From: a virus
Taxonomy: Duplodnaviria; Caudoviricetes
Length of the DNA stretch: 50,873 nt
Strand: one strand, 5' to 3'
Virus record (IMG/VR): IMGVR_UViG_3300048558_000003
Span: 1 to 50,873 of that record
Positions 1 to 50,873 of the stretch are shown here, one piece after another (position 1 is the first letter of the stretch; every line of letters starts with the position of its first letter). The notes under the pieces are model-generated. The model had not been told where the DNA came from. It worked only from the letters and a program-made list of their open reading frames with translations, and ran no database searches. The position numbers and the translations under genes are program-made.

Positions 1-121
1 TTAGTGTACGAATGAGGGGCATTCGGAATATCAGCATGATGGGATGCTAGGCATAATGCTATGCTTACGAATATCAGTAGCGCCCAGGCGGGCACAAGTG
101 CATTCGGAATATCGGAAGGGG
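1..121 (+). repeat. Left arm of perfect 121-bp inverted repeat (partner 2010-2130)
   Basis: 1-121 is the exact reverse complement of 2010-2130; the match stops at 122/2009. The arm may be truncated by the window start. Confidence 0.97.
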
Positions 122-281
122 GCATTAGGGTAATCAGTAATTCGGTTTATCCCTCTCTTGTCTTACGAAAGACAGCAAATGAGAACGAAAGGTGAATCAT
201 ATGTTATCGTTCACTAGGCGTTCTCTTTCCTGCGACATGCTGTCACAGTGACAATGTAAGGGAAATAGGCGACAACTTCAT

Positions 282-310
282 TTGGTTTAAGTCTTGTTCC
301 GGTTTATACT
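282..310 (+). promoter_or_regulatory. Putative sigma70 promoter
   Basis: TTGGTT(282-287)-N17-TATACT(305-310), upstream of boxA and the structured leader. Confidence 0.55.
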
Positions 311-375
311 GTTTCAGTAAATCGGAATTCGGTTAATAGGAAGCACGGCACTTGTGCAACGCCTTCCTAACCTCT

Positions 376-388
376 GGCTCTTTGACAA
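376..388 (+). promoter_or_regulatory. boxA-like Nus antitermination site
   Basis: GGCTCTTTGACAA, close to the rrn/lambda boxA consensus GCTCTTTAACA; preceded by a hairpin (TAGGAAG..CTTCCTA, 337-369). Confidence 0.7.
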
Positions 389-394
389 GTGAAT

Positions 395-785
395 AACTGG
401 CAACGTAGCTTTCACCTATCCCGCCGAGGGAAAGGGCTAGGCTATGTTTAAAGACGTTCATAATAAACTACGTCAGGCATATGACGCTTGCGCCATAGGC
501 GATAAGTGTCACGCTCTAATGTTGATCTATGAAGCGCTAGAGATAGCGCGACTAACTGACAATCGAGTATTGCGCGCGCATATCGTGCAATGTTCGGAGC
601 GTGTGAAGGCAATCTAACTAACGTCAACTCTAACATGCGGGATAGATGCAAGCTTCGTTGCTGGAAAGCTAACCAACCGCCAACCGATATGACAGGTTGC
701 GGCGTTAGTTCCTACCGTTCCAAGATGCACGTTCATTCAATACTGATAATCAGCATTGGCGTGCATCTATAACGGTAAGGAGAAT
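395..785 (+). ncRNA. Structured 5' leader / cis-regulatory RNA
   Basis: No credible ORF; several hairpins (e.g. 669-708); a long stem 709-782 covers the SD of ORF 790. Confidence 0.55.
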
Positions 786-789
786 ACAA

Positions 790-1944
790 ATGGCTATCAA
801 TGCAACTCCGCGCATTCGTGACGCTGCTTTCCGCTTTGCGAAGATCATTCGCGAGGATGAACAGTTCATGGAAGATGTTACTAATAACATCATCGCGATT
901 GAAACGGGCAAGCGTAGTTCAATGACGCTTCTTTGGGACTTGAAGCATATCAAGGATATCGACACTTCCGCCTTTCCGAAAGTCGGCTCGGTTGAGCCAA
1001 AGGCGAAAGCTGATGTCAATATCTTGTATGACTGGTATCAGACTAGCGACAAGAAAGACGGTCGTTTCTATTACGATTTGTGCGAGGCACTTGATCCGGA
1101 CTTGTTCGCTCTTAATCGAGCGTTCACGGAATACAATCGCAGTAAGACTGATAACAAGGATGAACTAGCAAAGACTATCCCGAGCACCCGCTCTGAAAAT
1201 TTCTTCCGTTCATTCCAACATGCAACGGAAGATTTGGCAGCGATCACCAAGAAATATAATCGCCGCTGGTCTAGCTTCACTGACATGATTATCAAGGCGG
1301 CTGCGACGGAGCAGATTGTTGCTAGGTTGAATACCGAAACAACGAAATGCTTCATTCGTGAAAAGAAGGACAAAGACGGAAAGGTGATAGGTTACGACGA
1401 AAGCCCGTCTCCAATCTCGTTTAGCAATCAACCGGCAATGGTTAAGGACCCTGATAACGTAGCGTTCAAGTCCGTTATCTGGTCCGTCGGAACGCTTAAC
1501 ATTCTTGAGCGTGAAGTACGGAATGAGAAAGGCGAGGGAACGGGCTTCACGCAACTAGACGTTCTCTTTAACAAGGGTGAAGTTACCTTTGAGACTGTCA
1601 CGGGCTTGCTTAAGAGGCAGGCCCCAGAGAAAGAGAAGGTTGACCGCGCGTCAGTCCTCAAATCTCTTAAGGCTGAAAAGCCTGAGGAGGTTGAGACTGT
1701 GTTGAATGTGCTGGCAGGGTATTTCTTGGATTTCAAATCGGATGGCTCGATATCTGTTATCGAACGTGTTGAAACGAAATTCTTAGATTACCTGAAGCCT
1801 GCCACTCACGACGAAACCGTGGTGGTAGCGACTAAGCTTGCGGAAGTGTTTGACAGTATCGCAAGCAAGCTTGACGGGCGGTATGTTCGCATTCGTCCGC
1901 AGGGTGACGCTGCTACGCCTGGGCCTGAGGAGAAGGCAGCCTAA
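790..1944 (+). CDS. Hypothetical protein, 384 aa (sole gene of the IR-flanked cassette)
   Basis: Long ORF with strong SD TAAGGAGA, followed by an intrinsic terminator; no family recognised. Confidence 0.9.
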   Translation: MAINATPRIRDAAFRFAKIIREDEQFMEDVTNNIIAIETGKRSSMTLLWDLKHIKDIDTSAFPKVGSVEPKAKADVNILYDWYQTSDKKDGRFYYDLCEALDPDLFALNRAFTEYNRSKTDNKDELAKTIPSTRSENFFRSFQHATEDLAAITKKYNRRWSSFTDMIIKAAATEQIVARLNTETTKCFIREKKDKDGKVIGYDESPSPISFSNQPAMVKDPDNVAFKSVIWSVGTLNILEREVRNEKGEGTGFTQLDVLFNKGEVTFETVTGLLKRQAPEKEKVDRASVLKSLKAEKPEEVETVLNVLAGYFLDFKSDGSISVIERVETKFLDYLKPATHDETVVVATKLAEVFDSIASKLDGRYVRIRPQGDAATPGPEEKAA

Positions 1945-1960
1945 CGAGTAACGACTAATC

Positions 1961-1999
1961 AAACCCCAGTGGCTTAACCGCTACTGGGGTTTTTCTTTT
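1961..1999 (+). terminator. Rho-independent terminator
   Basis: AAACCCCAGTGGC-TTAACC-GCTACTGGGGTTT followed by a T-tract. Confidence 0.9.
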
Positions 2000-2009
2000 G
2001 CCCGCCTAG

Positions 2010-2130
2010 CCCCTTCCGATATTCCGAATGCACTTGTGCCCGCCTGGGCGCTACTGATATTCGTAAGCATAGCATTATGCCTAGCATCCCATCATGCTGA
2101 TATTCCGAATGCCCCTCATTCGTACACTAA
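2010..2130 (-). repeat. Right arm of perfect 121-bp inverted repeat
   Basis: Reverse complement of 1-121. Confidence 0.97.
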
Positions 2131-2730
2131 TGATGCTGCTAATCCGAACTGCCATCGTGCTACTGATTATCATCATGCACCCGCATCTAATCACTTCAAG
2201 CTTAAAACATTCTCAGGCTAGTCTATTCATCCGCCTGGGTCCCCCCTATGTGTGGGGGTGGGGGTGGGCCATAGGCTGCAGAAGTCACCTCATATATATC
2301 GTACAAAAATTATGAAAAACCAAAGTTGTATTCTAGTGGAGAATAAGCTAGGATACAGAAGTCACTCATATGTCAATAGATACCCTCTATGTACATTAGA
2401 TGCCACTATATACTGTATTCACCACCATTACAACCCTAATAATTCCTCCCTCCTCTATGTCTACTGGAAGTAATTAGGCTATCCAGAAGTACCTTATTGA
2501 CCCCCATGATGATAGGTTTTTACGAGCGCAGCGAGTATATCAGAAGCTGTAGATACCATACGGTGGGTGGTGTTGTGGGGGAGGGATGCAGAAGCTACCC
2601 ATACCCCTCTTTTAGATAGGCCCTAGGATTCAATTAGAAGCCCACTGGTGCGTTCTACAAGCTTTTGGCTACTAGGGTAGCTGAAAGTTGAATAAGCTCT
2701 CCACGGCCTTCCCTAGCCTTTTAAGGCCCT
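2131..2730. other. Non-coding control region (candidate origin / packaging-terminus region)
   Basis: No credible ORFs; G-run 2254-2268, five CAGAAG-centred repeats, CGAGCGCAGCGAGT motif. Confidence 0.45.
2620..2727. repeat. ~100-bp quasi-symmetric dispersed element, copy 1
   Basis: TAGAAGCCCACTGGTGCGTT..GCTACTAGGGTAGC..CCACGGCCTTC; related to copies at ~11900 and ~43400. Confidence 0.75.
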
Positions 2731-2737
2731 ACTCCAT

Positions 2738-2766
2738 TTGACTCAAGGACTTCCTCATGAGATAAT
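2738..2766 (+). promoter_or_regulatory. sigma70 early promoter
   Basis: TTGACT-N17-GATAAT upstream of the first early gene. Confidence 0.8.
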
Positions 2767-2829
2767 ACTTGAAGCTGGAAAAAGAAATGTTTCTTATTCA
2801 GCGGTTAACTGGAGAAGGGAGTTACCCAT

Positions 2830-3117
2830 ATGGAGAAACCTAAGGACATTCTAGCGGTGAACATGACCGGCCAGCCCATGAACCCTGAGGATTGGAAGAA
2901 GGGTACTAAGGCTATGGTCATAGGTGTAGCCTCATTCGTGGGGAATTACACTCAAAGTACCACGTGTGTCTCCAATACACATGATGGTGTCTACTTGATT
3001 GATTACGTGTTGGGTGGTCGCATCCAACCAACCATTCGCGTCGAGGGGAACAAGGTCATCATCCCTCGGGGTACAGACTTGGAACTCTCCCTGAGACTGC
3101 TTGAGGAGGGATTCTGA
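2830..3117 (+). CDS. Hypothetical early protein
   Basis: ORF with GGGAG SD. Confidence 0.75.
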   Translation: MEKPKDILAVNMTGQPMNPEDWKKGTKAMVIGVASFVGNYTQSTTCVSNTHDGVYLIDYVLGGRIQPTIRVEGNKVIIPRGTDLELSLRLLEEGF

Positions 3118-3119
3118 AC

Positions 3120-3344
3120 ATGATGGCATTCGTCGATTGGATTAATCCCAAGTGCCGTAGTTCCAGAGGTAGCTTCTACTTCTGCTGGTATGAAACCGTA
3201 GGCGGTAAGGTTTCATGCCAGACCTATGATGCCACTGTAATCTCCCCCAAGAGCTTGCAGAAGCATCAGATAACCGCCGCAGAAGCCAACCTTCCCTTGG
3301 TTGAGTTGGCTAAGATTTATCCGTACATAGGAGGGGAGGAGTGA
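3120..3344 (+). CDS. Hypothetical early protein
   Basis: ORF with GGAGG SD, tightly packed. Confidence 0.7.
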   Translation: MMAFVDWINPKCRSSRGSFYFCWYETVGGKVSCQTYDATVISPKSLQKHQITAAEANLPLVELAKIYPYIGGEE

Positions 3345-3432
3345 CGGAAATATTCATCAATCTCATGACAATATGGGCAATCGTAGTCATTGTGTGGATT
3401 GTCTATCGTTGTTTCTTGGAAGGAAGGTAACT

Positions 3433-3681
3433 ATGAAAAAGGTAAAACCTTTTAAGGGTTACATTCAAGATTGGAAATGGGTACACTTTCCGGATGGAAA
3501 GGTTGTGCAAGGAATGCCTATAGGACACCCTGACTTTTCAGGATGGATTAGGACTTCTAAGGTTGTGAAGGAAACTCCGTGTGAGAACGGGGTGGATACC
3601 GCAATCGAAACCCTGAACAGCCGGTATATCTTAATGGGCATGCCTATCCGGTTAACGCATACAAACTTGGAGACCTACTAG
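3433..3681 (+). CDS. Hypothetical early protein
   Basis: ATG 3433 after GGAAGG; RTS..ETLNSRY motif. Confidence 0.7.
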   Translation: MKKVKPFKGYIQDWKWVHFPDGKVVQGMPIGHPDFSGWIRTSKVVKETPCENGVDTAIETLNSRYILMGMPIRLTHTNLETY

Positions 3682-3683
3682 AT

Positions 3684-4079
3684 ATGGGCGACGTAACTGG
3701 ACCAATTTCAACGCTTCCCGGCCGCCGGCACGAATTGCCGGAAGGCACGATGTGCGACGTACATCCTGACCGCGCTGCCGTTGTGCGCGTGCAGGGAGAG
3801 ACGGATTCATTCGGCTGCGAAATGAACGATTGCTGCCAAGAATGCTTCGACAAAATCCGCGAATATGAGCGGTCGGATGAGGCCCGCACCGGCAAATGCG
3901 ACTGGTGTAAGAAGGATGCGACCGATTTAGCTGACAAGCGGGACATCGACGAAGGCATGTGCGGCCCTGTCTATCGGGTCTGCGGCGCCTGCCGTAAGCG
4001 ATACGACGACGAAATTCAAAAAGAGTTGGATTACTATGACAACGGCTATGACGATTGCGTCGAGGATGATCGGCCATGA
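3684..4079 (+). CDS. Cys-rich putative Zn-binding protein
   Basis: CxxH and three CxxC motifs; visibly higher GC than neighbouring genes. Confidence 0.75.
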   Translation: MGDVTGPISTLPGRRHELPEGTMCDVHPDRAAVVRVQGETDSFGCEMNDCCQECFDKIREYERSDEARTGKCDWCKKDATDLADKRDIDEGMCGPVYRVCGACRKRYDDEIQKELDYYDNGYDDCVEDDRP

Positions 4080-4157
4080 GCATCCAGCGATCGAACACAA
4101 GATGTAGGGCTGTATGTCTTAACCGGATAAGCATGTTAATGGGTAAAGGGGATATGT

Positions 4158-4403
4158 GTGGCGACATATCTAGCACTCTGTAGATGCGGTCAACGTGTCT
4201 ATACAATTCAGGACTTCAATACCCACTCTATGTCTCCCTCAAGTAATCATAGTTGGGTGGATGTTCCCGATACACTAATGGTTCACTATCCCAAGGGATG
4301 GAAACCAACACCAAAGCGTAGGCGTATTAGGGTATGTAGAAGCTGTAGTGCACCTTACGATTGTAAGGCATTCAGAAGATGTACTAGGAGGGAAGGGCTA
4401 TGA
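4158..4403 (+). CDS. Hypothetical protein (Cys-rich, basic)
   Basis: ORF coupled to the next gene by ATGA overlap. Confidence 0.5.
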   Translation: MATYLALCRCGQRVYTIQDFNTHSMSPSSNHSWVDVPDTLMVHYPKGWKPTPKRRRIRVCRSCSAPYDCKAFRRCTRREGL

Positions 4404-4720
4404 TCTACGTAGAACGACGGACTCAAACTAAGGACGGTGAGGTAATCGTCCGTGATCCTGTACCTAGTGTACGGGAAGCGTTGATAAAAATTTATGGGTT
4501 GATGTGCGATGGTTTCTACAACGCACGCAATCAGCACAGTCAGATCGTCTGTGCCCAAGAAGGTACTCTCTACCCACCAATCGTTAACCCTGCGTCGATG
4601 ATGTATCCCGCAGGGCTGTTCTTCTCCAATGATCTAGGTGGTCACACCCTAGTATGTTGGAATGAATATACCCATGACATGCCTGTGGGTGTGAGTGTCA
4701 AGAGAGGTGTCTCGCGATGA
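4400..4720 (+). CDS. Hypothetical protein
   Basis: SD GGAGGG, ATGA overlaps. Confidence 0.7.
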   Translation: MIYVERRTQTKDGEVIVRDPVPSVREALIKIYGLMCDGFYNARNQHSQIVCAQEGTLYPPIVNPASMMYPAGLFFSNDLGGHTLVCWNEYTHDMPVGVSVKRGVSR

Positions 4721-5656: not shown

Positions 5657-6253
5657 ATGCAGGAGAAGGTAGCTATCTTCATTGATGCAGCTAATCTCAG
5701 TTACGTGTGTAAAGCCCTACAAGCTAATATCGACTTCAATAAATTTCTCCCCCACCTGCGTTCCGAGTATCAATGGGACATCGTGAACGCTTTCTTCTAC
5801 ACCGCCCTCGTCAAAGACGAGAAGAGCGGTTTCATCAGCCGTCACAACCAGATGGATTGGCTCAGATATCACGGCTTCACAACCAAGGTGAAGCAGGCCA
5901 AACAGTACACGCGTGCAGACGGTACAATCCGGACTAAAGGGAATATGGACATTGAGATAGCCGTAGGGATGATGCGCGCTGCTGAAAGCCGCAACATCCA
6001 ACGGCTCGTCCTCATGTCTGGTGACGGGGACTTCCGTGAGTTGATTGAGTACCTTCAGGAAACTAAAGGTATTCCGGTCACGGTCATGTCTACTAAACCT
6101 CTTGTCTCTAATGACCTTAGAGCAGTGTGCAATCAATACGTGGACATACGTTCCTTCATCCACCTCGTGGAAGAACGTAAGCAGCACGTGGAGGTTGTAA
6201 AGGCGAGTTCCATTGTAGATATGCTGCACTCTAAACGCAGGGGAGTTAAATGA
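5657..6253 (+). CDS. NYN-domain (LabA/DUF88, PIN-like) ribonuclease
   Basis: IFIDAAN, KGNMDIEIAV, SGDGDF and S..L...C..YVD motifs. Confidence 0.92.
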   Translation: MQEKVAIFIDAANLSYVCKALQANIDFNKFLPHLRSEYQWDIVNAFFYTALVKDEKSGFISRHNQMDWLRYHGFTTKVKQAKQYTRADGTIRTKGNMDIEIAVGMMRAAESRNIQRLVLMSGDGDFRELIEYLQETKGIPVTVMSTKPLVSNDLRAVCNQYVDIRSFIHLVEERKQHVEVVKASSIVDMLHSKRRGVK

Positions 6254-6778: not shown

Positions 6779-8338
6779 ATGTATAACGGCGCAATTATTG
6801 CCATGAAGGCGAAGAACCAGATGATCCCGAATGCTTTTTGGGACAAGGTTCTCCCCGAATATGGCAAGGTATTGGGTGTGTCAGTGGTGGATGGCAAGAG
6901 CCTACTGGCTCTCCCCAATATCCCCAAGGGCAACATCAACAAGGATGCCTTGAACGGCTTGCAAGAGAAGTTCAAGTCCGCCTCAATCCTCTTCTTCTTG
7001 GGGGATTTCGAGGATGGTTTCCAGTCCTACAGCGTACAGCCCTTCACGGTGCTGTCCGATAAGGACAACAATCCCATTCTGTCTTGCTTCACAGAAGCTT
7101 CATTTAACAATTACAAGCAGGAGAAGGGTACTCACAGCCCTGCTTTCTACGCCTTCAACGAATTTATTATTGAGGAAATCAAGGATGCCTACGATAAGTG
7201 CAAGGGAGACCTTGACGCTCTCATGGGCATGCTCCGAGAGGACAAGCGACTGCGAACCAAGATGCAGGGTGTTCTGTCTCCCTCGGGAACTATGGTCTTC
7301 ATGGCTAATACCAGTGAGATCGTGAAGGTCTTTACTGGTGAGGACGGTCAACCGGAAGAGTTCTCCTTCGGTTGGGCTACTCAAAGCTGCGGCTACCGTG
7401 AGGACAAGGAAGAAGATGAGGAGAAGCTCGTCAAAGCCTTTTCAGGGGAAAAGGAAGAGAAAACCAAAGAGCCTTCTGTTATGGATAAGCTTTTTGGTGA
7501 TACCAAAGCTTCCGTTGAGCTGCCGCCTGCCATCCAAGAAGAAGAGGAGAAGCCGGAGGTTGAAGCTAAACCTGCGGAAGAAGAGCAGAAGCCTGAGGAA
7601 GAGTTTGAAGAAGTCAAGATAACCATTCCTGAGGCGATGAAGAGCAAGCAGCAGAAAAAGGACTGGTGGCGTGCTCAGCTCGGCTTCCTGCCGTCGAACT
7701 ATATTAAGCGCGAGACCTTCCTCGTGAAGCGGTATCCTAAGACGGGAGTACTGATCGGTGAAGACGACACCAAACTTGTCCACGGAAAGACATACAAGTC
7801 TTTCTATGACGCCGCTGTTGCTATGGCTAATAATCGTGGCGTTGGTAACGCTGGCAAGGATACTGCACCTCACCACATCCCCGCCACCGAAACTGCCGTC
7901 AAGCCCCCTGCAGTCGAGCCCAAGCAAGAAGAAGCTCCCGTCAAAGACCTTTCCAGCTCCATCAGCACCCTCTCAGCTGAGGATCGCAAGGCCATTGCCA
8001 AGGACTTCCTCGACAGCGCACCTGTGAAGAAGTCGTTGGATAACCACGCCAACGAGATCATGGACCCGGAGAAGATGAAGACCGAGTTGGCTAAGTACAA
8101 GACCTTCACCGAGGAAATGTCCATCAAGCTGACGGACACCTTCAAGTGGAATAAGGATGCTCTCAAGCATCTGGCTAAGGTTAATCTGGATGGGTTCATC
8201 CTTCTCTTCCTTGAGAACCAGATGGCCAATCCAGCATTCAAGAAATATCTTGCTGAGACCCGCAAGCCCGTAGACAAGCCCGCCGAAGCCCCCTCGGCAG
8301 AGCAGAAGCCGAAGCAACGAGTTCAGCTGCCGCTGTAA
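6779..8338 (+). CDS. Large protein with possible degenerate class-II glutamine amidotransferase (Ntn) N-domain and acidic linker
   Basis: N-terminus GAIIAMKAKNQMIP..LGVSVVDG and later VQPF echo phage GATase-II; no N-terminal Cys. Confidence 0.55.
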   Translation: MYNGAIIAMKAKNQMIPNAFWDKVLPEYGKVLGVSVVDGKSLLALPNIPKGNINKDALNGLQEKFKSASILFFLGDFEDGFQSYSVQPFTVLSDKDNNPILSCFTEASFNNYKQEKGTHSPAFYAFNEFIIEEIKDAYDKCKGDLDALMGMLREDKRLRTKMQGVLSPSGTMVFMANTSEIVKVFTGEDGQPEEFSFGWATQSCGYREDKEEDEEKLVKAFSGEKEEKTKEPSVMDKLFGDTKASVELPPAIQEEEEKPEVEAKPAEEEQKPEEEFEEVKITIPEAMKSKQQKKDWWRAQLGFLPSNYIKRETFLVKRYPKTGVLIGEDDTKLVHGKTYKSFYDAAVAMANNRGVGNAGKDTAPHHIPATETAVKPPAVEPKQEEAPVKDLSSSISTLSAEDRKAIAKDFLDSAPVKKSLDNHANEIMDPEKMKTELAKYKTFTEEMSIKLTDTFKWNKDALKHLAKVNLDGFILLFLENQMANPAFKKYLAETRKPVDKPAEAPSAEQKPKQRVQLPL

Positions 8339-8440
8339 AGCCCCTCCTCCCACGGCAGCTTAACTGAGGGAGGGAGAGTGTCGCCTTACCGTGCTCTCCC
8401 TCTCTCTTTCTTTCCAACCAACGCTTCGGAGACAACCCCC

Positions 8441-9184
8441 ATGAGTTTCTTTACTAGTCGAGATGCCCTCAAGAGAGCCATGCTCGATATCCAGACTACA
8501 GCTAGTGAATACAGCAAATGGACTCCGGATGTAGTTCATTTGGAGTCCCATGCCTTTCAACTCCTCTTTGTCTATGATCGTCTGCAACCTGATTTCCCTG
8601 ACTACGAAAAGGTGGTCAAAGAGCATGTGATCCATGCTGGCATTGCATTCACGAATGAGAAGTTTGTGATGCAGAAGTTCTGTCTGGGTAAGGACTCATA
8701 CCCGATTATCCAGCGGAAAGATAAGTACATCCTCACCCCACCACGCAGGATCAAAGGGCAGCTCTATTACATCCAGTCCGAGGTGATCAAAGAGCTTGAC
8801 TCGATGGCTCGGAATGGGATAGAGTTCAAGCGAGAGCTTCTTGAAATCTACATGCCCTACACCCATCTCAAGAAGCCTGCTCCCATGCTGTACGGCAAGG
8901 AGCGTGAAGAAGCGATGGCTAGGGGTGAGCCTGAGGGTCGAACGCGAGCTGAATATCTCGCAGTGTTCGGCACCGAACATCCTTCCTTCCACATTAAGAA
9001 GCATAAGATTTTGAAAGCCTACGGATATGTAGGTATCAATGATTACTGGGATGGAGTATCCAACCCAGAAGAATTCGAAGGGATCACCAACATGAGTTGG
9101 GGCAATGTGCAGGCATTCAAAGCACATGATCCTGGTATTGGAACCTACTACCATTTCACCAAGAGAGAGTTATTTGACAAATAG
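8441..9184 (+). CDS. Gamma-glutamylcyclotransferase (AIG2-like) fold protein, divergent
   Basis: LLFVYDRLQ (cf. FVYGTL); IKGQLYYI..IKELDSMARNGIEFKRELLEI. Confidence 0.7.
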   Translation: MSFFTSRDALKRAMLDIQTTASEYSKWTPDVVHLESHAFQLLFVYDRLQPDFPDYEKVVKEHVIHAGIAFTNEKFVMQKFCLGKDSYPIIQRKDKYILTPPRRIKGQLYYIQSEVIKELDSMARNGIEFKRELLEIYMPYTHLKKPAPMLYGKEREEAMARGEPEGRTRAEYLAVFGTEHPSFHIKKHKILKAYGYVGINDYWDGVSNPEEFEGITNMSWGNVQAFKAHDPGIGTYYHFTKRELFDK

Positions 9185-38271: not shown

Positions 38272-40382
38272 TGCCTAGACAGCTTGCTGTAGAAGCTGAG
38301 AATAACTTTTCTGGTGGCTTGGTAACTCAAGGCACTGGTCTCAACTTCCCTCCGAACTCTTGTACGGAGACAATCAATTGTATCCACCATGAACTGGGCA
38401 ACATTAAACGTAGACCCGGTTTTGATTTTGAGGATAACTTCACAGTAAAAACAATCGACAGGACTTCTTCAGCAGTATCTAACTTCTTCTGGAGGAACGT
38501 CTCTGGAGACGGTACAGTCAACCTTGAAGTACTCCAAGTAGGTGAAACTCTATACTTTTACCTACCCAGTAGTGCTGGTTTCTCTGCTGGTGCTCTAGCT
38601 ACTACAGTAGACTTAACTGACTTCATGCCCGCAGGAGCCCCTTCTCCGGGTACTTCTGAGTGTCAGTATGCTCCCGGTCTAGGACATCTATTCGTAACTC
38701 ACCCCACTCTAGAACCTTTCTACATAACTTATGATGAAGCTTTAGAGACCGTATCTACAGTACAGATCACAGTTAAGATCAGAGATACTGAAGGTATTGA
38801 CGATAGTCTCGATATAGATGAACGTCCTACTGTAGAAACTAACGCTCACAAGTATAATCTATATAACCAAGGATGGTATGCTAGTACATACTATGCCCAA
38901 TGGTTTGCATCTAGAGCAGACTATCCCAGTAATGCCGATACATGGTGGCTATTCAAGAACTTCGACGACCAGTTCGATCTAACCACTGTCTCCTCAGTAT
39001 TATACGATAGAGGTACTACTCAATCTGCTAGAGGCCACTACATCTTAGAAGCGTTCAATCAAGATCGCTCAACTGTATCTGGCATTGCCTCCTTAACTGT
39101 CGTAGACTCAGGCTACCAACGTCCCTCTGCCTGTGCATTCTATTCAGGTAGAATTTGGTACGCTGGTGTAGCTTCCAATGGTTTCGAGAGTAAGCTTTAC
39201 TTCTCCCAGATACTTCTGAACATAGAAGACGCTGGTAACTGCTATTCCAGAGAAGACCCTAGTTCTGAGAACTACGATCAACTACAGGCTGATGATGGTG
39301 GATGGTTAATCATTCCCGGTATCGGTCTAATCCGTAAACTAGTTCCCCTAGGTTCTAGTCTAATTGTATTTGGTTCCCAAGGTATATTCCAGATCACTGG
39401 TTCCACTGGTATAGGCTTCACTGCCCTAGACTACTCAGTCAACCAGATATCTTCTGTGAAATGTCTATCTGCCTCTTCCTTCGTAGACGTAGATGGCTTC
39501 CCCTCTTTCTGGACTATCGAAGGTATCTACGCAGTTCTACCCGGACAGAGTGGTAATAATCTACAAGTCCAAAGTCTGACTGACCAGAAAATCAAAGAGT
39601 ATTATCTTGACATCCCCCTTAATTGTAAACGTCTGGCCAGAGGGGCATATGATCCCAGAAGCCATACTATCCAATGGCTCTTTAGATCAGCTGAACCAGC
39701 ATCTCTCACACAAGCCTATGAGTTCACAGACGTACTCAACTTCAATACCATTGCAGGAGGCTTCTACCCTTGGACTCTTCCTGACTCAGACGTTACAGTC
39801 AATGGAATATTCCTCTCAGAAGGATTTGGAGCAGACCCTGATATACGTCAGGTAGTCGTAGGAGCTAACAACGTAGTTGTAGGTGCTAATAACGTAGCTA
39901 CAATTAGCTTCGGTGATCTAGTCCTAGAGTTCTCTAATAAGTTCATTGTCTCTTACCCAGAGAGTAGTACGTATAAGTTTACCTTCGCAGACTTCGCTAA
40001 CACAAGCTTCCTAGACTGGTTGTCTTATGATGACGTAGGTGAAGACGCTGAAGCTACCTTTACAGTAGGCTATAAGATACCTACTCAAGGGGCTAAGAGA
40101 TTTAACCCCACTTATCTATACCTCTTCTCAGATTTGAGAGACATAGATGAGACTGACTTCTACTTCCAATCCGTCTGGAACTTCTCTAATTCTGGGAATA
40201 GTGGTAAGGAAAGCTCTAGACAACGTATTACACACACCACGGGTAACTTCGATATAGTTCGTAATAGACTTAAGGTACGAGGTTCTGGCTACGTAGTGCA
40301 ATACAGATATACTTCTATTCCCAGTAAACCTTTTAATATCCTTGGATGGACAGTAAGTGACACCCTCGCAACCAGAGATTAA
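38271..40382 (+). CDS. Tail tubular protein B / nozzle
   Basis: NNFSGGL N-terminus, FYSGRIWYAG, LYFSQ; beta-propeller-like; synteny. Confidence 0.85.
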   Translation: MPRQLAVEAENNFSGGLVTQGTGLNFPPNSCTETINCIHHELGNIKRRPGFDFEDNFTVKTIDRTSSAVSNFFWRNVSGDGTVNLEVLQVGETLYFYLPSSAGFSAGALATTVDLTDFMPAGAPSPGTSECQYAPGLGHLFVTHPTLEPFYITYDEALETVSTVQITVKIRDTEGIDDSLDIDERPTVETNAHKYNLYNQGWYASTYYAQWFASRADYPSNADTWWLFKNFDDQFDLTTVSSVLYDRGTTQSARGHYILEAFNQDRSTVSGIASLTVVDSGYQRPSACAFYSGRIWYAGVASNGFESKLYFSQILLNIEDAGNCYSREDPSSENYDQLQADDGGWLIIPGIGLIRKLVPLGSSLIVFGSQGIFQITGSTGIGFTALDYSVNQISSVKCLSASSFVDVDGFPSFWTIEGIYAVLPGQSGNNLQVQSLTDQKIKEYYLDIPLNCKRLARGAYDPRSHTIQWLFRSAEPASLTQAYEFTDVLNFNTIAGGFYPWTLPDSDVTVNGIFLSEGFGADPDIRQVVVGANNVVVGANNVATISFGDLVLEFSNKFIVSYPESSTYKFTFADFANTSFLDWLSYDDVGEDAEATFTVGYKIPTQGAKRFNPTYLYLFSDLRDIDETDFYFQSVWNFSNSGNSGKESSRQRITHTTGNFDIVRNRLKVRGSGYVVQYRYTSIPSKPFNILGWTVSDTLATRD

Positions 40383-50649: not shown

Positions 50650-50761
50650 TATATAAGATTAAACACATACATAGAATAACTCTTATATCCTAACGATAAG
50701 CTAACGTCTATTATGTGTTATCACTCTTATAATACACCATAACCAACACAAACTACCATAT

Positions 50762-50824
50762 GACCCTCTTATATATGTATACTATAGTAACCATGGTTAC
50801 TATGTAATACATGGTAAGAGGGTC
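50762..50824. repeat. Long imperfect palindrome (cruciform) with a perfect 20-bp core
   Basis: GACCCTCTTA/TAAGAGGGTC arms; core ATAGTAACCATGGTTACTAT at 50784-50803. Confidence 0.85.
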
Positions 50825-50873
50825 GTCTCTGTTAAGGAGACAGGAGAAGGAGTCTCTGTAAGGAGACATAGAG

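Follow-up and report, generated by a model that had tools for sequence, protein, structure and literature searches.

The stretch of DNA considered here, called the window, is the whole of IMG/VR virus record IMGVR_UViG_3300048558_000003 (50,873 bases). IMG/VR classes it as linear, without end repeats, CheckV estimates its completeness at 100%, and all of its real genes lie on the + strand. At its left end, positions 1 to 121 are the exact reverse complement of positions 2010 to 2130 (121 nt, 100% complementary). The 1,888 nt between these two arms, below called the middle, hold one gene, ORF384, with a long non-coding stretch before it and a terminator behind it; the sequence to the right of the inner arm is referred to as the core (Table 1).

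Table 1. Features at the two ends of the window (positions are those of the record).
Feature	Positions	Strand	Remarks
Outer (terminal) copy of the repeat	1-121	.	Start of the record and probably also of the DNA molecule; reverse complement of the inner copy
Dyad motif ATTCNGAAT, candidate protein-binding sites	21-29, 102-110, 2021-2029, 2102-2110	.	Two per arm, within the 16-mer GCATTCGGAATATCRG
Non-coding, strongly structured stretch before the gene (leader or DNA-level element)	122-789	+	668 nt
Weak sigma-70-like promoter candidate, TTGGTT-17-TATACT	282-310	+	8 of 12 positions in a relaxed scan; best placed candidate
boxA-like 12-mer GCTCTTTGACAA	377-388	+	Candidate; one exact copy
Putative 57-aa ORF within the leader	444-617	+	Enclosed by the 400-424/637-661 stem; no Pfam or PHROGs match
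ORF384, 384 aa, real gene of an uncharacterized family	790-1944	+	AAGGAG 7 nt before the ATG
Intrinsic terminator of ORF384	1961-1992	+	13-pair stem with 7 G-C pairs, 6-nt loop, then TTCTTTT
Inner copy of the repeat	2010-2130	.	Continuous with the core; a contig starts exactly at 2010 and spans 2130/2131 in all four runs
Non-coding interval from the repeat to the first core gene	2131-2829	+	First core ORF starts at 2830
Right-terminal non-coding stretch (other genome end)	50650-50873	.	224 nt; DNA fold z -5.31; nothing shared with the left end

Two scans identified these arms as the sole long inverted repeat within the record, and a perfect match of 121 letters is far beyond chance. The perfect repeat reported by a first-pass annotation of this DNA was thereby confirmed, with the caveat that a de Bruijn assembler can merge near-identical arms, which leaves single-base differences between them possible from contigs alone. 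Both arms are non-coding. A 30-nt unit at 1995-2024 recurs at 2033-2062 (80%), forming a local repeat array that spans the inner edge of the inner arm. Since this unit crosses the arm's edge and recurs inside it, the arrangement suggests that the inner copy lies in its original context and that the terminal copy is derived from it. The dyad ATTCNGAAT has four matches in the record, all of them inside the arms (1.13 expected; 2 of 100 shuffles reach four). With up to three mismatches, the surrounding 16-mer matches five times in the record, four times within the arms, where 0.42 would be expected for the record. A search of IMG/VR with this 16-mer returned 49 loci with one match each, which were taken as chance.

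We compared positions 1-4000 with the Logan contigs (k=31) of four public runs, of which X1 and X2 may represent the sample of origin, X7 and X8 being other samples. Among the public runs, X1-X6 contain 98 to 100% of the sampled words of the record; small shares found in wastewater, sludge, and drinking-water runs were left out of account. Over positions 1-2686, the record and the contigs of all four runs differ in no letter. The middle forms a separate contig of 1,948 nt in three runs, covering exactly 92-2039 (1,888 nt plus k-1 = 30 nt of repeat on each side); in run X8 it is split in two by low depth, with the same outer limits. A contig that starts exactly at 2010 bridges 2130/2131 in every run, and repeat and core make up one unbranched contig of 48,904 nt in X1 and of 48,798 nt in X2. 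On the right, where the X1 contig runs 40 nt past the end of the record and the X2 contig stops 66 nt short of it, the graph is a dead end. As for position 1, none of the four runs has a neighboring contig, a joint, or a loose end. The graph is thus a "lollipop": both ends of the middle join one side of the repeat, and the other side leads into the core only. In such a graph, the outward extent of the outer arm is hidden, since all of its words also occur in the inner arm and the flank of that arm. Both orientations of the middle are equally valid paths, and the first-pass annotation was right to call the orientation of the cassette uncertain. Contigs at k=31 cannot span a 121-nt repeat, and a flip of the middle is here something that we infer.

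Middle and core have similar depths in each run (28.3/29.8, 19.4/17.5, 14.2/12.7, and 8.4/9.4; ratio, 0.89 to 1.12), which fits one middle per genome. These numbers speak against a giant palindrome, for which a ratio of 0.5 is expected. Over the repeat, run X7 has a 456-nt contig (2010-2465) at a depth of 15.8, versus 12.7 to 14.2 beside it, as fits a two-copy stretch of about 80 to 135 nt; double depth over the repeat is not resolvable in X1 and X2. The depths also bear on the possibility that the left end is a separate linear element of 2.1 kb, resembling a satellite or a plasmid, that has one gene and is bounded by 121-bp terminal inverted repeats. The true left end of the phage would then be at 2010 and have the terminal 121 bp of this element in common with it, and the join would be a shared graph node rather than a covalent one. 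The k=31 lollipop would look identical, and by tetranucleotide composition the middle indeed deviates more than any other of 94 windows of 1,888 nt (L1 distance, 0.402; mean, 0.271; standard deviation, 0.046; maximum, 0.392). However, a depth ratio so close to unity in four of four runs is not expected of two replicons, and the X7 contig fits two copies of the repeat, not the three that this explanation calls for. We regard a separate element as unlikely.

A side observation concerns the non-coding stretch 3' of the inner arm, which holds a C-run/G-run element, CCCCCCTATGTGTGGGGGTGGGGGTGGG, at 2240-2275. In the shallow runs, contigs are interrupted close to this element (X8 at 2290, X7 at 2465), perhaps through sequencing dropout or strain variation.

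We read the 2,130-bp structure as the physical, repeat-capped left end of a phage genome that is linear and has no direct terminal repeats, and we put the probability of this reading at roughly 0.55. The genome would then consist of a 1,888-bp unique segment with one early-type gene, held between the terminal and the inner 121-bp copies, and of a 48.7-kb core. The terminus of the molecule would coincide with position 1 or lie no more than a few tens of bases away from it, which would explain why the repeat stops exactly where the record starts; the record may fall short of the true ends by some tens of bases. Its two ends were not found to share a direct repeat, and the right end has neither a direct nor an inverted match to positions 1-3000 beyond 8 to 14 nt. 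The right end holds a 63-nt near-palindrome (50762-50824) followed by two GTCTC...GAGAC hairpins with no T run after them, and these elements may belong to the genome end rather than to a terminator.

The first-pass annotation had taken the start of the record at the repeat edge for what an assembler would produce at an invertible or ambiguous segment. Assemblers do break at unresolved repeats, and a segment of this kind might lie within a circular, permuted, or terminally redundant genome. Direct end repeats in five of seven related records, and the direct terminal repeats described for cobaviruses (PMC6775973), would suit such a genome. The contigs do not: the repeat runs unbranched into the core in four of four runs, no second outer neighbor of the repeat appears in any of them, the right end is dead, and the two ends of the record have no repeat in common. 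Because the contig at 2130/2131 is unbroken and a second outer neighbor is lacking, the structure is most likely not a segment inside a genome of that type, an explanation that we consider very unlikely.

The estimate of the repeat's length depends on the assembly. Exact 127-nt direct overlaps at or near the ends of three of the seven related IMG/VR records (G005, G007, and G008) are the signature of a final k of 127. If the present record was likewise assembled at k=127, the 121-nt repeat was spanned by reads, it is therefore not an overlap artifact, and the record starts where the reads stop. The path from the middle through the repeat into the core would then also need repeat-spanning reads, which speaks against a separate 2.1-kb element. 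A length of 121 nt is probably right and is certainly a lower bound. A 40-mer across the repeat-core junction had no match in other IMG/VR records, with near-identical records possibly outside the set searched.

By PHROGs names, the core encodes a T7-type primase-helicase, a family A DNA polymerase (T7/PolA type, phrog_17), a gp2.5-like single-strand-binding/annealing protein, and a Cas4-domain exonuclease. It also encodes an endolysin, large terminase, portal, major head protein, tail fibers, a SIO1-type "tail appendage," and internal virion proteins. The terminase is 52 to 59% identical to those of Celeribacter phage P12053L, Lentibacter phages ICBM1-3, Roseophage SIO1, and Vibrio phage ICP2, and the tail appendage shows 28 to 33% identity to its best matches. 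From these identities, the phage is classed on sequence grounds as an uncultured podovirus from bioreactor metagenomes, distantly related to the SIO1/VpV262/ICP2 type. A blastn search of positions 1-2400 against GenBank phages gave no match.

The ends of related virus records were examined as well. Those of eight related records (16 end stretches) contain no such repeat, and the related records' ends have no sequence in common with the ends of the window. Among the five related records with direct end repeats, G004 (about 122 nt, one mismatch) and G006 (about 414 nt, imperfect) are classed as linear, as are G005 and G007, whose exact 127-nt direct repeats are offset from one end; the IMG/VR label "linear" under-calls terminal repeats in this group. 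The right end of G003 looked syntenic, but both G003 ends lie in coding sequence and were set aside as uninformative on true ends. The first-pass annotation had held that relatives without the inverted repeats would count against the structure. The relatives compared do lack it; at only 52 to 65% terminase identity, however, this shows, as far as sequence comparison goes, that the structure is not ancestral to the group, but not that it is an artifact.

Several points weigh against a repeat-capped genome end. A perfect inverted repeat of at least 30 nt occurs in none of the seven whole related records. All four runs are bioreactor metagenomes and may share one campaign. The evidence on end and orientation comes from contigs, not reads; rare variants are lost in contigs, and nothing is proved by a sequence being missing from them. 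In run X8, the contig 2010-2290 has a depth of 16.2 versus 8.4 to 9.4, which fits a repeat of about 210 to 260 nt or three repeat copies, the latter as expected of a separate element; X8 is shallow and patchy over this interval. If the last k of the record was 121, the repeat length would be an overlap artifact and the true repeat longer. This happened in the draft of the Burkholderia jumbo phage Matilda, where, according to the preprint, an apparent 127-bp repeat was assembler overlap and the true repeat was 1.5 kb (bioRxiv 10.64898/2026.10.21.760668). Cultured relatives (cobaviruses, ICBM1-3) carry direct terminal repeats of 159 to 173 bp and have T7-like packaging (PMC6775973). A further difficulty is how a T7-type system would copy and package a genome that lacks direct terminal repeats.

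The last such point is a precedent within the phage group: Bischoff et al. judge the inverted repeats of the SIO1 record to be a misassembly (PMC6775973). One arm of the present repeat might likewise be an assembly or library artifact, a chimera or a fold-back. In the SIO1 record (NC_002519.1), a 1.3-kb inverted duplication (125-1415 versus 3249-4539) copies part of the terminase gene. That record has a further 251-nt inverted copy at 39640-39890, and both features fit the published view of its ends as misassembled. Both records come from related podoviruses and have two inverted copies at one end, but the SIO1 blocks are 84 to 637 nt long and duplicate terminase coding sequence, whereas the arms here are non-coding and reproducible in four runs. 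Both middle-repeat junctions are present in independent k=31 assemblies of all four runs with no differing letter, and the depth is even. Moreover, fold-backs would be expected to give short-loop palindromes, not a 1.9-kb loop at full depth. An artifact of this kind seems extremely improbable, and the repeat is real and most likely not the product of an assembler break.

Compared with the related cobaviruses and Zobellviridae, the phage is of the same type (terminase, primase-helicase, family A polymerase, and gp2.5-like protein) and has a short non-coding terminal repeat of similar length. It differs in that the repeat is inverted, both copies lie at one end, and no direct repeat joins the two ends.

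The first-pass annotation had described the gene between the arms as one orphan ORF. It is the only convincing gene there and belongs to no Pfam, PHROGs, or NCBIfam family, but the label needs qualifying: a profile search of 1.84 billion representative proteins returned 15 relatives at an E value of ≤0.001, about 11 of them full length. Neither ORF384 nor 11 of its relatives has a consistent Pfam, PHROGs, or NCBIfam assignment. A profile search against PDB sequences gave a best E value of 0.093 and no relative, and tblastn searches with ORF384 and the family members P0014, P0009, and P0006 against GenBank phages gave no match. Neither IMG/VR nor two scans of metagenome contigs from JGI yielded DNA of the relatives, and none of the 10 related records has the gene. 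A scan of species-representative genomes gave a single 27-residue match, which was spurious. An AlphaFold2 model built from 3 sequences was unusable (pLDDT, 42.9); one built from 12 sequences reached a pLDDT of 79.7 and a pTM of 0.65. With the whole-chain model, Foldseek found nothing at an E value of ≤0.001 in PDB and BFVD. The best VIA-align match among 48,161 chains (Z, 5.8) covered only helices 97-175 and revealed no fold relative, and a search of the ESM Atlas gave no usable match.

In an alignment of 12 sequences (20 to 67% identity to ORF384), residues E38, K41, P63, D81, Y83, D96, R159, and S232 are invariant. An Ala-Ala C terminus is found in 10 of the 12 full-length members and Val-Ala in one more, the last 20 or so residues being otherwise variable. 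This ending resembles C-terminal ClpX degrons and may, by analogy, be a degradation signal.

Where relatives of ORF384 have been found, their contigs are often short, with lengths of 1,981 to 2,376 nt for 6 of 11 family members, near the 1,948-nt loop contig seen here. A gene commonly carried on a repeat-bounded module of this size would be expected to yield such contigs of about 2 kb, and so would a separate 2.1-kb element; short metagenome contigs are common anyway. Against a separate element, three members lie on contigs of 7,206, 4,516, and 10,875 nt, so that the gene can belong to larger genomes.

The deviant composition of the middle and the absence of its gene from the related records make the module look acquired. 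They would also be compatible with a transposon-like element with 121-bp terminal inverted repeats that sits at the genome end or has captured it, in which ORF384 would be an unrecognized transposase or a protein binding to the ends at ATTCNGAAT. This explanation overlaps, as to the origin of the structure, with a repeat-capped end. The inverted repeats at both outer edges, the confinement of the dyads to them, the family's frequent occurrence on contigs of about 2 kb, and its invariant E, K, D, Y, D, R, and S residues, such as an enzyme might have, all favor it. Yet the element is single copy in the record, ORF384 resembles no transposase family in Pfam, PHROGs, or NCBIfam, the rve domain is absent, and the whole-chain model has no fold match. 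In addition, insertion sequences seldom have 121-bp repeats or a 668-nt leader. The record has no left flank in which to compare a target-site duplication. A transposon-like origin is, in our estimation, quite unlikely.

The stretch between the outer arm and ORF384 folds far better than shuffled sequences (-228.3 kcal/mol; z, -6.92 on the + strand and -4.70 on the - strand). The first-pass annotation had proposed a structured leader here; the stretch spans 668 nt. Over positions 1-3000, the only Rfam match was NsiR1, on the terminator hairpin and below threshold. A long-range stem (400-424/637-661, 88% complementary) sets off the region 400-661, which may act as a regulatory RNA domain or else contain a small gene. 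The promoter and the boxA that had also been proposed fared less well. A standard consensus scan of 1-790 found no sigma-70-like promoter, a relaxed scan gave only candidates matching 8 of 12 positions, and a second candidate motif, CAGAAGTCACYCATAT, is not enriched. The candidate boxA is a single 12-mer, and its pattern is not significantly enriched (three occurrences of GCTCTTTGACAA in the record with up to one mismatch versus 0.56 expected; 3 of 100 shuffles reach three). The region's best sigma-70 match is found beyond the structure, ahead of the first core gene (2738-2766, TTGACT-17-GATAAT with TG, 10 of 12). The proposed terminator, by contrast, is a strong intrinsic one. With its own ribosome-binding site and this one-directional terminator, ORF384 would be a self-contained unit that stays expressible in either orientation of the segment. 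As the first gene at the leading end, it would probably act early, in host takeover or anti-defense, and perhaps transiently; this is the least supported step of the scheme.

Could the segment flip? Searches of all six frames of the whole record found no Resolvase (PF00239), Phage_integrase (PF00589), ResT/TelK protelomerase (PF16684), or rve transposase domain at an E value of ≤1, control genomes being positive for the first two. Neither was a recombinase or transposase present among the annotated ORFs (PHROGs on 39 ORFs, Pfam on 27). The absence of an encoded recombinase or transposase, stated by the first-pass annotation, thus holds for the known families, and any inversion would therefore depend on homologous recombination between the arms. 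During replication, such recombination would keep the two arms identical and flip the middle, giving two genome isomers. It might be provided by the gp2.5-like annealing protein together with the Cas4-type exonuclease, or by host RecA.

A more far-reaching proposal is that the repeat-capped end is the working telomere of a T7-type podovirus without direct terminal repeats. By folding back, the 3'-terminal 121 nt would pair with the inner copy and prime replication of the end, in a rolling-hairpin-like manner, flipping the 1.9-kb segment in each round. The ORF384 family would supply the end-binding or end-resolving protein acting at the ATTCNGAAT dyads, as its invariant Tyr, Ser, Arg, Lys, Asp, and Glu residues and its conserved C-terminal Ala-Ala might suggest. 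The 2-kb repeat-bounded module would cap other uncultured phages too, which would account for half of the ORF384 relatives being on contigs of about 2 kb. Taken jointly, these steps are very improbable.

Among the known systems, the structure is most likely, by analogy, a small one-ended counterpart of the terminal "bidirectional segments" of phage Matilda. The account that follows is drawn from the Matilda preprint (bioRxiv 10.64898/2026.10.21.760668). One end of the Matilda genome is a 1.3-kb "small bidirectional segment" (SBS) between 1.5-kb short inverted repeats (SIR), and the other is a 25-kb segment between 18-kb repeats, which together give a dumbbell graph. Its sequence always ended at a repeat, and both orientations were seen by PCR and PacBio and within single plaques; the authors propose a recombination-driven flip-flop. 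They report hints of similar ends in BcepSaruman and BcepSauron. The preprint, dated October 2026, presents the architecture as the first of its kind in any organism and suggests that such ends go unnoticed because they are simplified in assemblies (bioRxiv 10.64898/2026.10.21.760668).

On our reading, both linear genomes would end in a unique segment of 1 to 2 kb (1.3 kb in Matilda, 1.9 kb here) held within an inner and a terminal inverted repeat. Both give the same loop-on-stick graph and have hypothetical genes in the segment, and here, too, the genome would end at the repeat. No recombinase was found here, and the word occurs nowhere in the accessible text of the preprint. The phage lineages are unrelated, and the differences are considerable: Matilda has a genome of 267 kb, against 51 kb here, both ends capped rather than one, and repeats of 1.5 and 18 kb rather than of about 121 bp. 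Several small genes cross its repeat junctions, whereas the segment here has one 384-aa gene with its own terminator. Two orientations were demonstrated in Matilda, while here they are predicted. A literature search, with most subscription journals outside its coverage, found no further phage case of such an end.

A more distant parallel is seen in herpesviruses. In class D genomes (the varicella-zoster and pseudorabies type), a unique short region lies between internal and terminal inverted repeats. The layout shares with the present one a terminal unique segment, isomers would arise by recombination without a dedicated invertase, and both groups package by terminase. Those viruses are eukaryotic, however, their repeats are of kilobase length and carry genes, and their packaging signals are known. 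The G segment of Mu (Gin) and the C segment of P1 (Cin) are internal invertible segments that have an adjacent serine invertase and switch tail-fiber genes. Like the structure described here, they place a segment of 2 to 4 kb between inverted repeats in a phage genome; here, the six frames hold no Resolvase domain, the segment is terminal, and the gene is not a tail-fiber gene. The internal position of Gin/Cin/Hin-type segments is likewise not what we see, since the record starts at the outer arm and no sequence lies left of that arm in the four runs. Both phage segments are also summarized in the Matilda preprint (bioRxiv 10.64898/2026.10.21.760668).

Other types of phage ends fit less well. 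T7-like direct terminal repeats would join the two ends of the record, where no direct repeat is found and the right end is a dead end. Protein-primed ends of the phi29/PRD1 type do not agree with two copies at the left end, none at the right, and a polymerase of the T7/PolA type rather than family B. An N15-type hairpin telomere finds no counterpart in the six-frame search for protelomerase (PF16684).

Beyond the terminal structure, the early region encodes an NYN-domain protein, a predicted RNase domain (PF01936; E, 4.8e-31; 5657-6253), and a gamma-glutamyl cyclotransferase-like domain (PF06094; E, 1.5e-6; 8378-9184). A 519-aa ORF at 6779-8338 has no family and deviant codon usage. No phage RNA polymerase was recognized.

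If confirmed, the structure would be a second, independent case of a flip-flop-type, repeat-bounded phage end after Matilda. It would mean that this architecture is no peculiarity of jumbo phages, the genome here being one fifth the size, and it would come from a lineage in which cultured phages have the usual direct terminal repeats; it can be seen in public metagenome data. In practical terms, virus records labeled linear and without terminal repeats that start with an inverted copy of an internal sequence should be considered as possible true ends. With a 121-bp repeat and one gene, the phage would offer a compact system for studying how such ends replicate, are packaged, and flip, and the small uncharacterized family of ORF384 would be flagged as tied to them.

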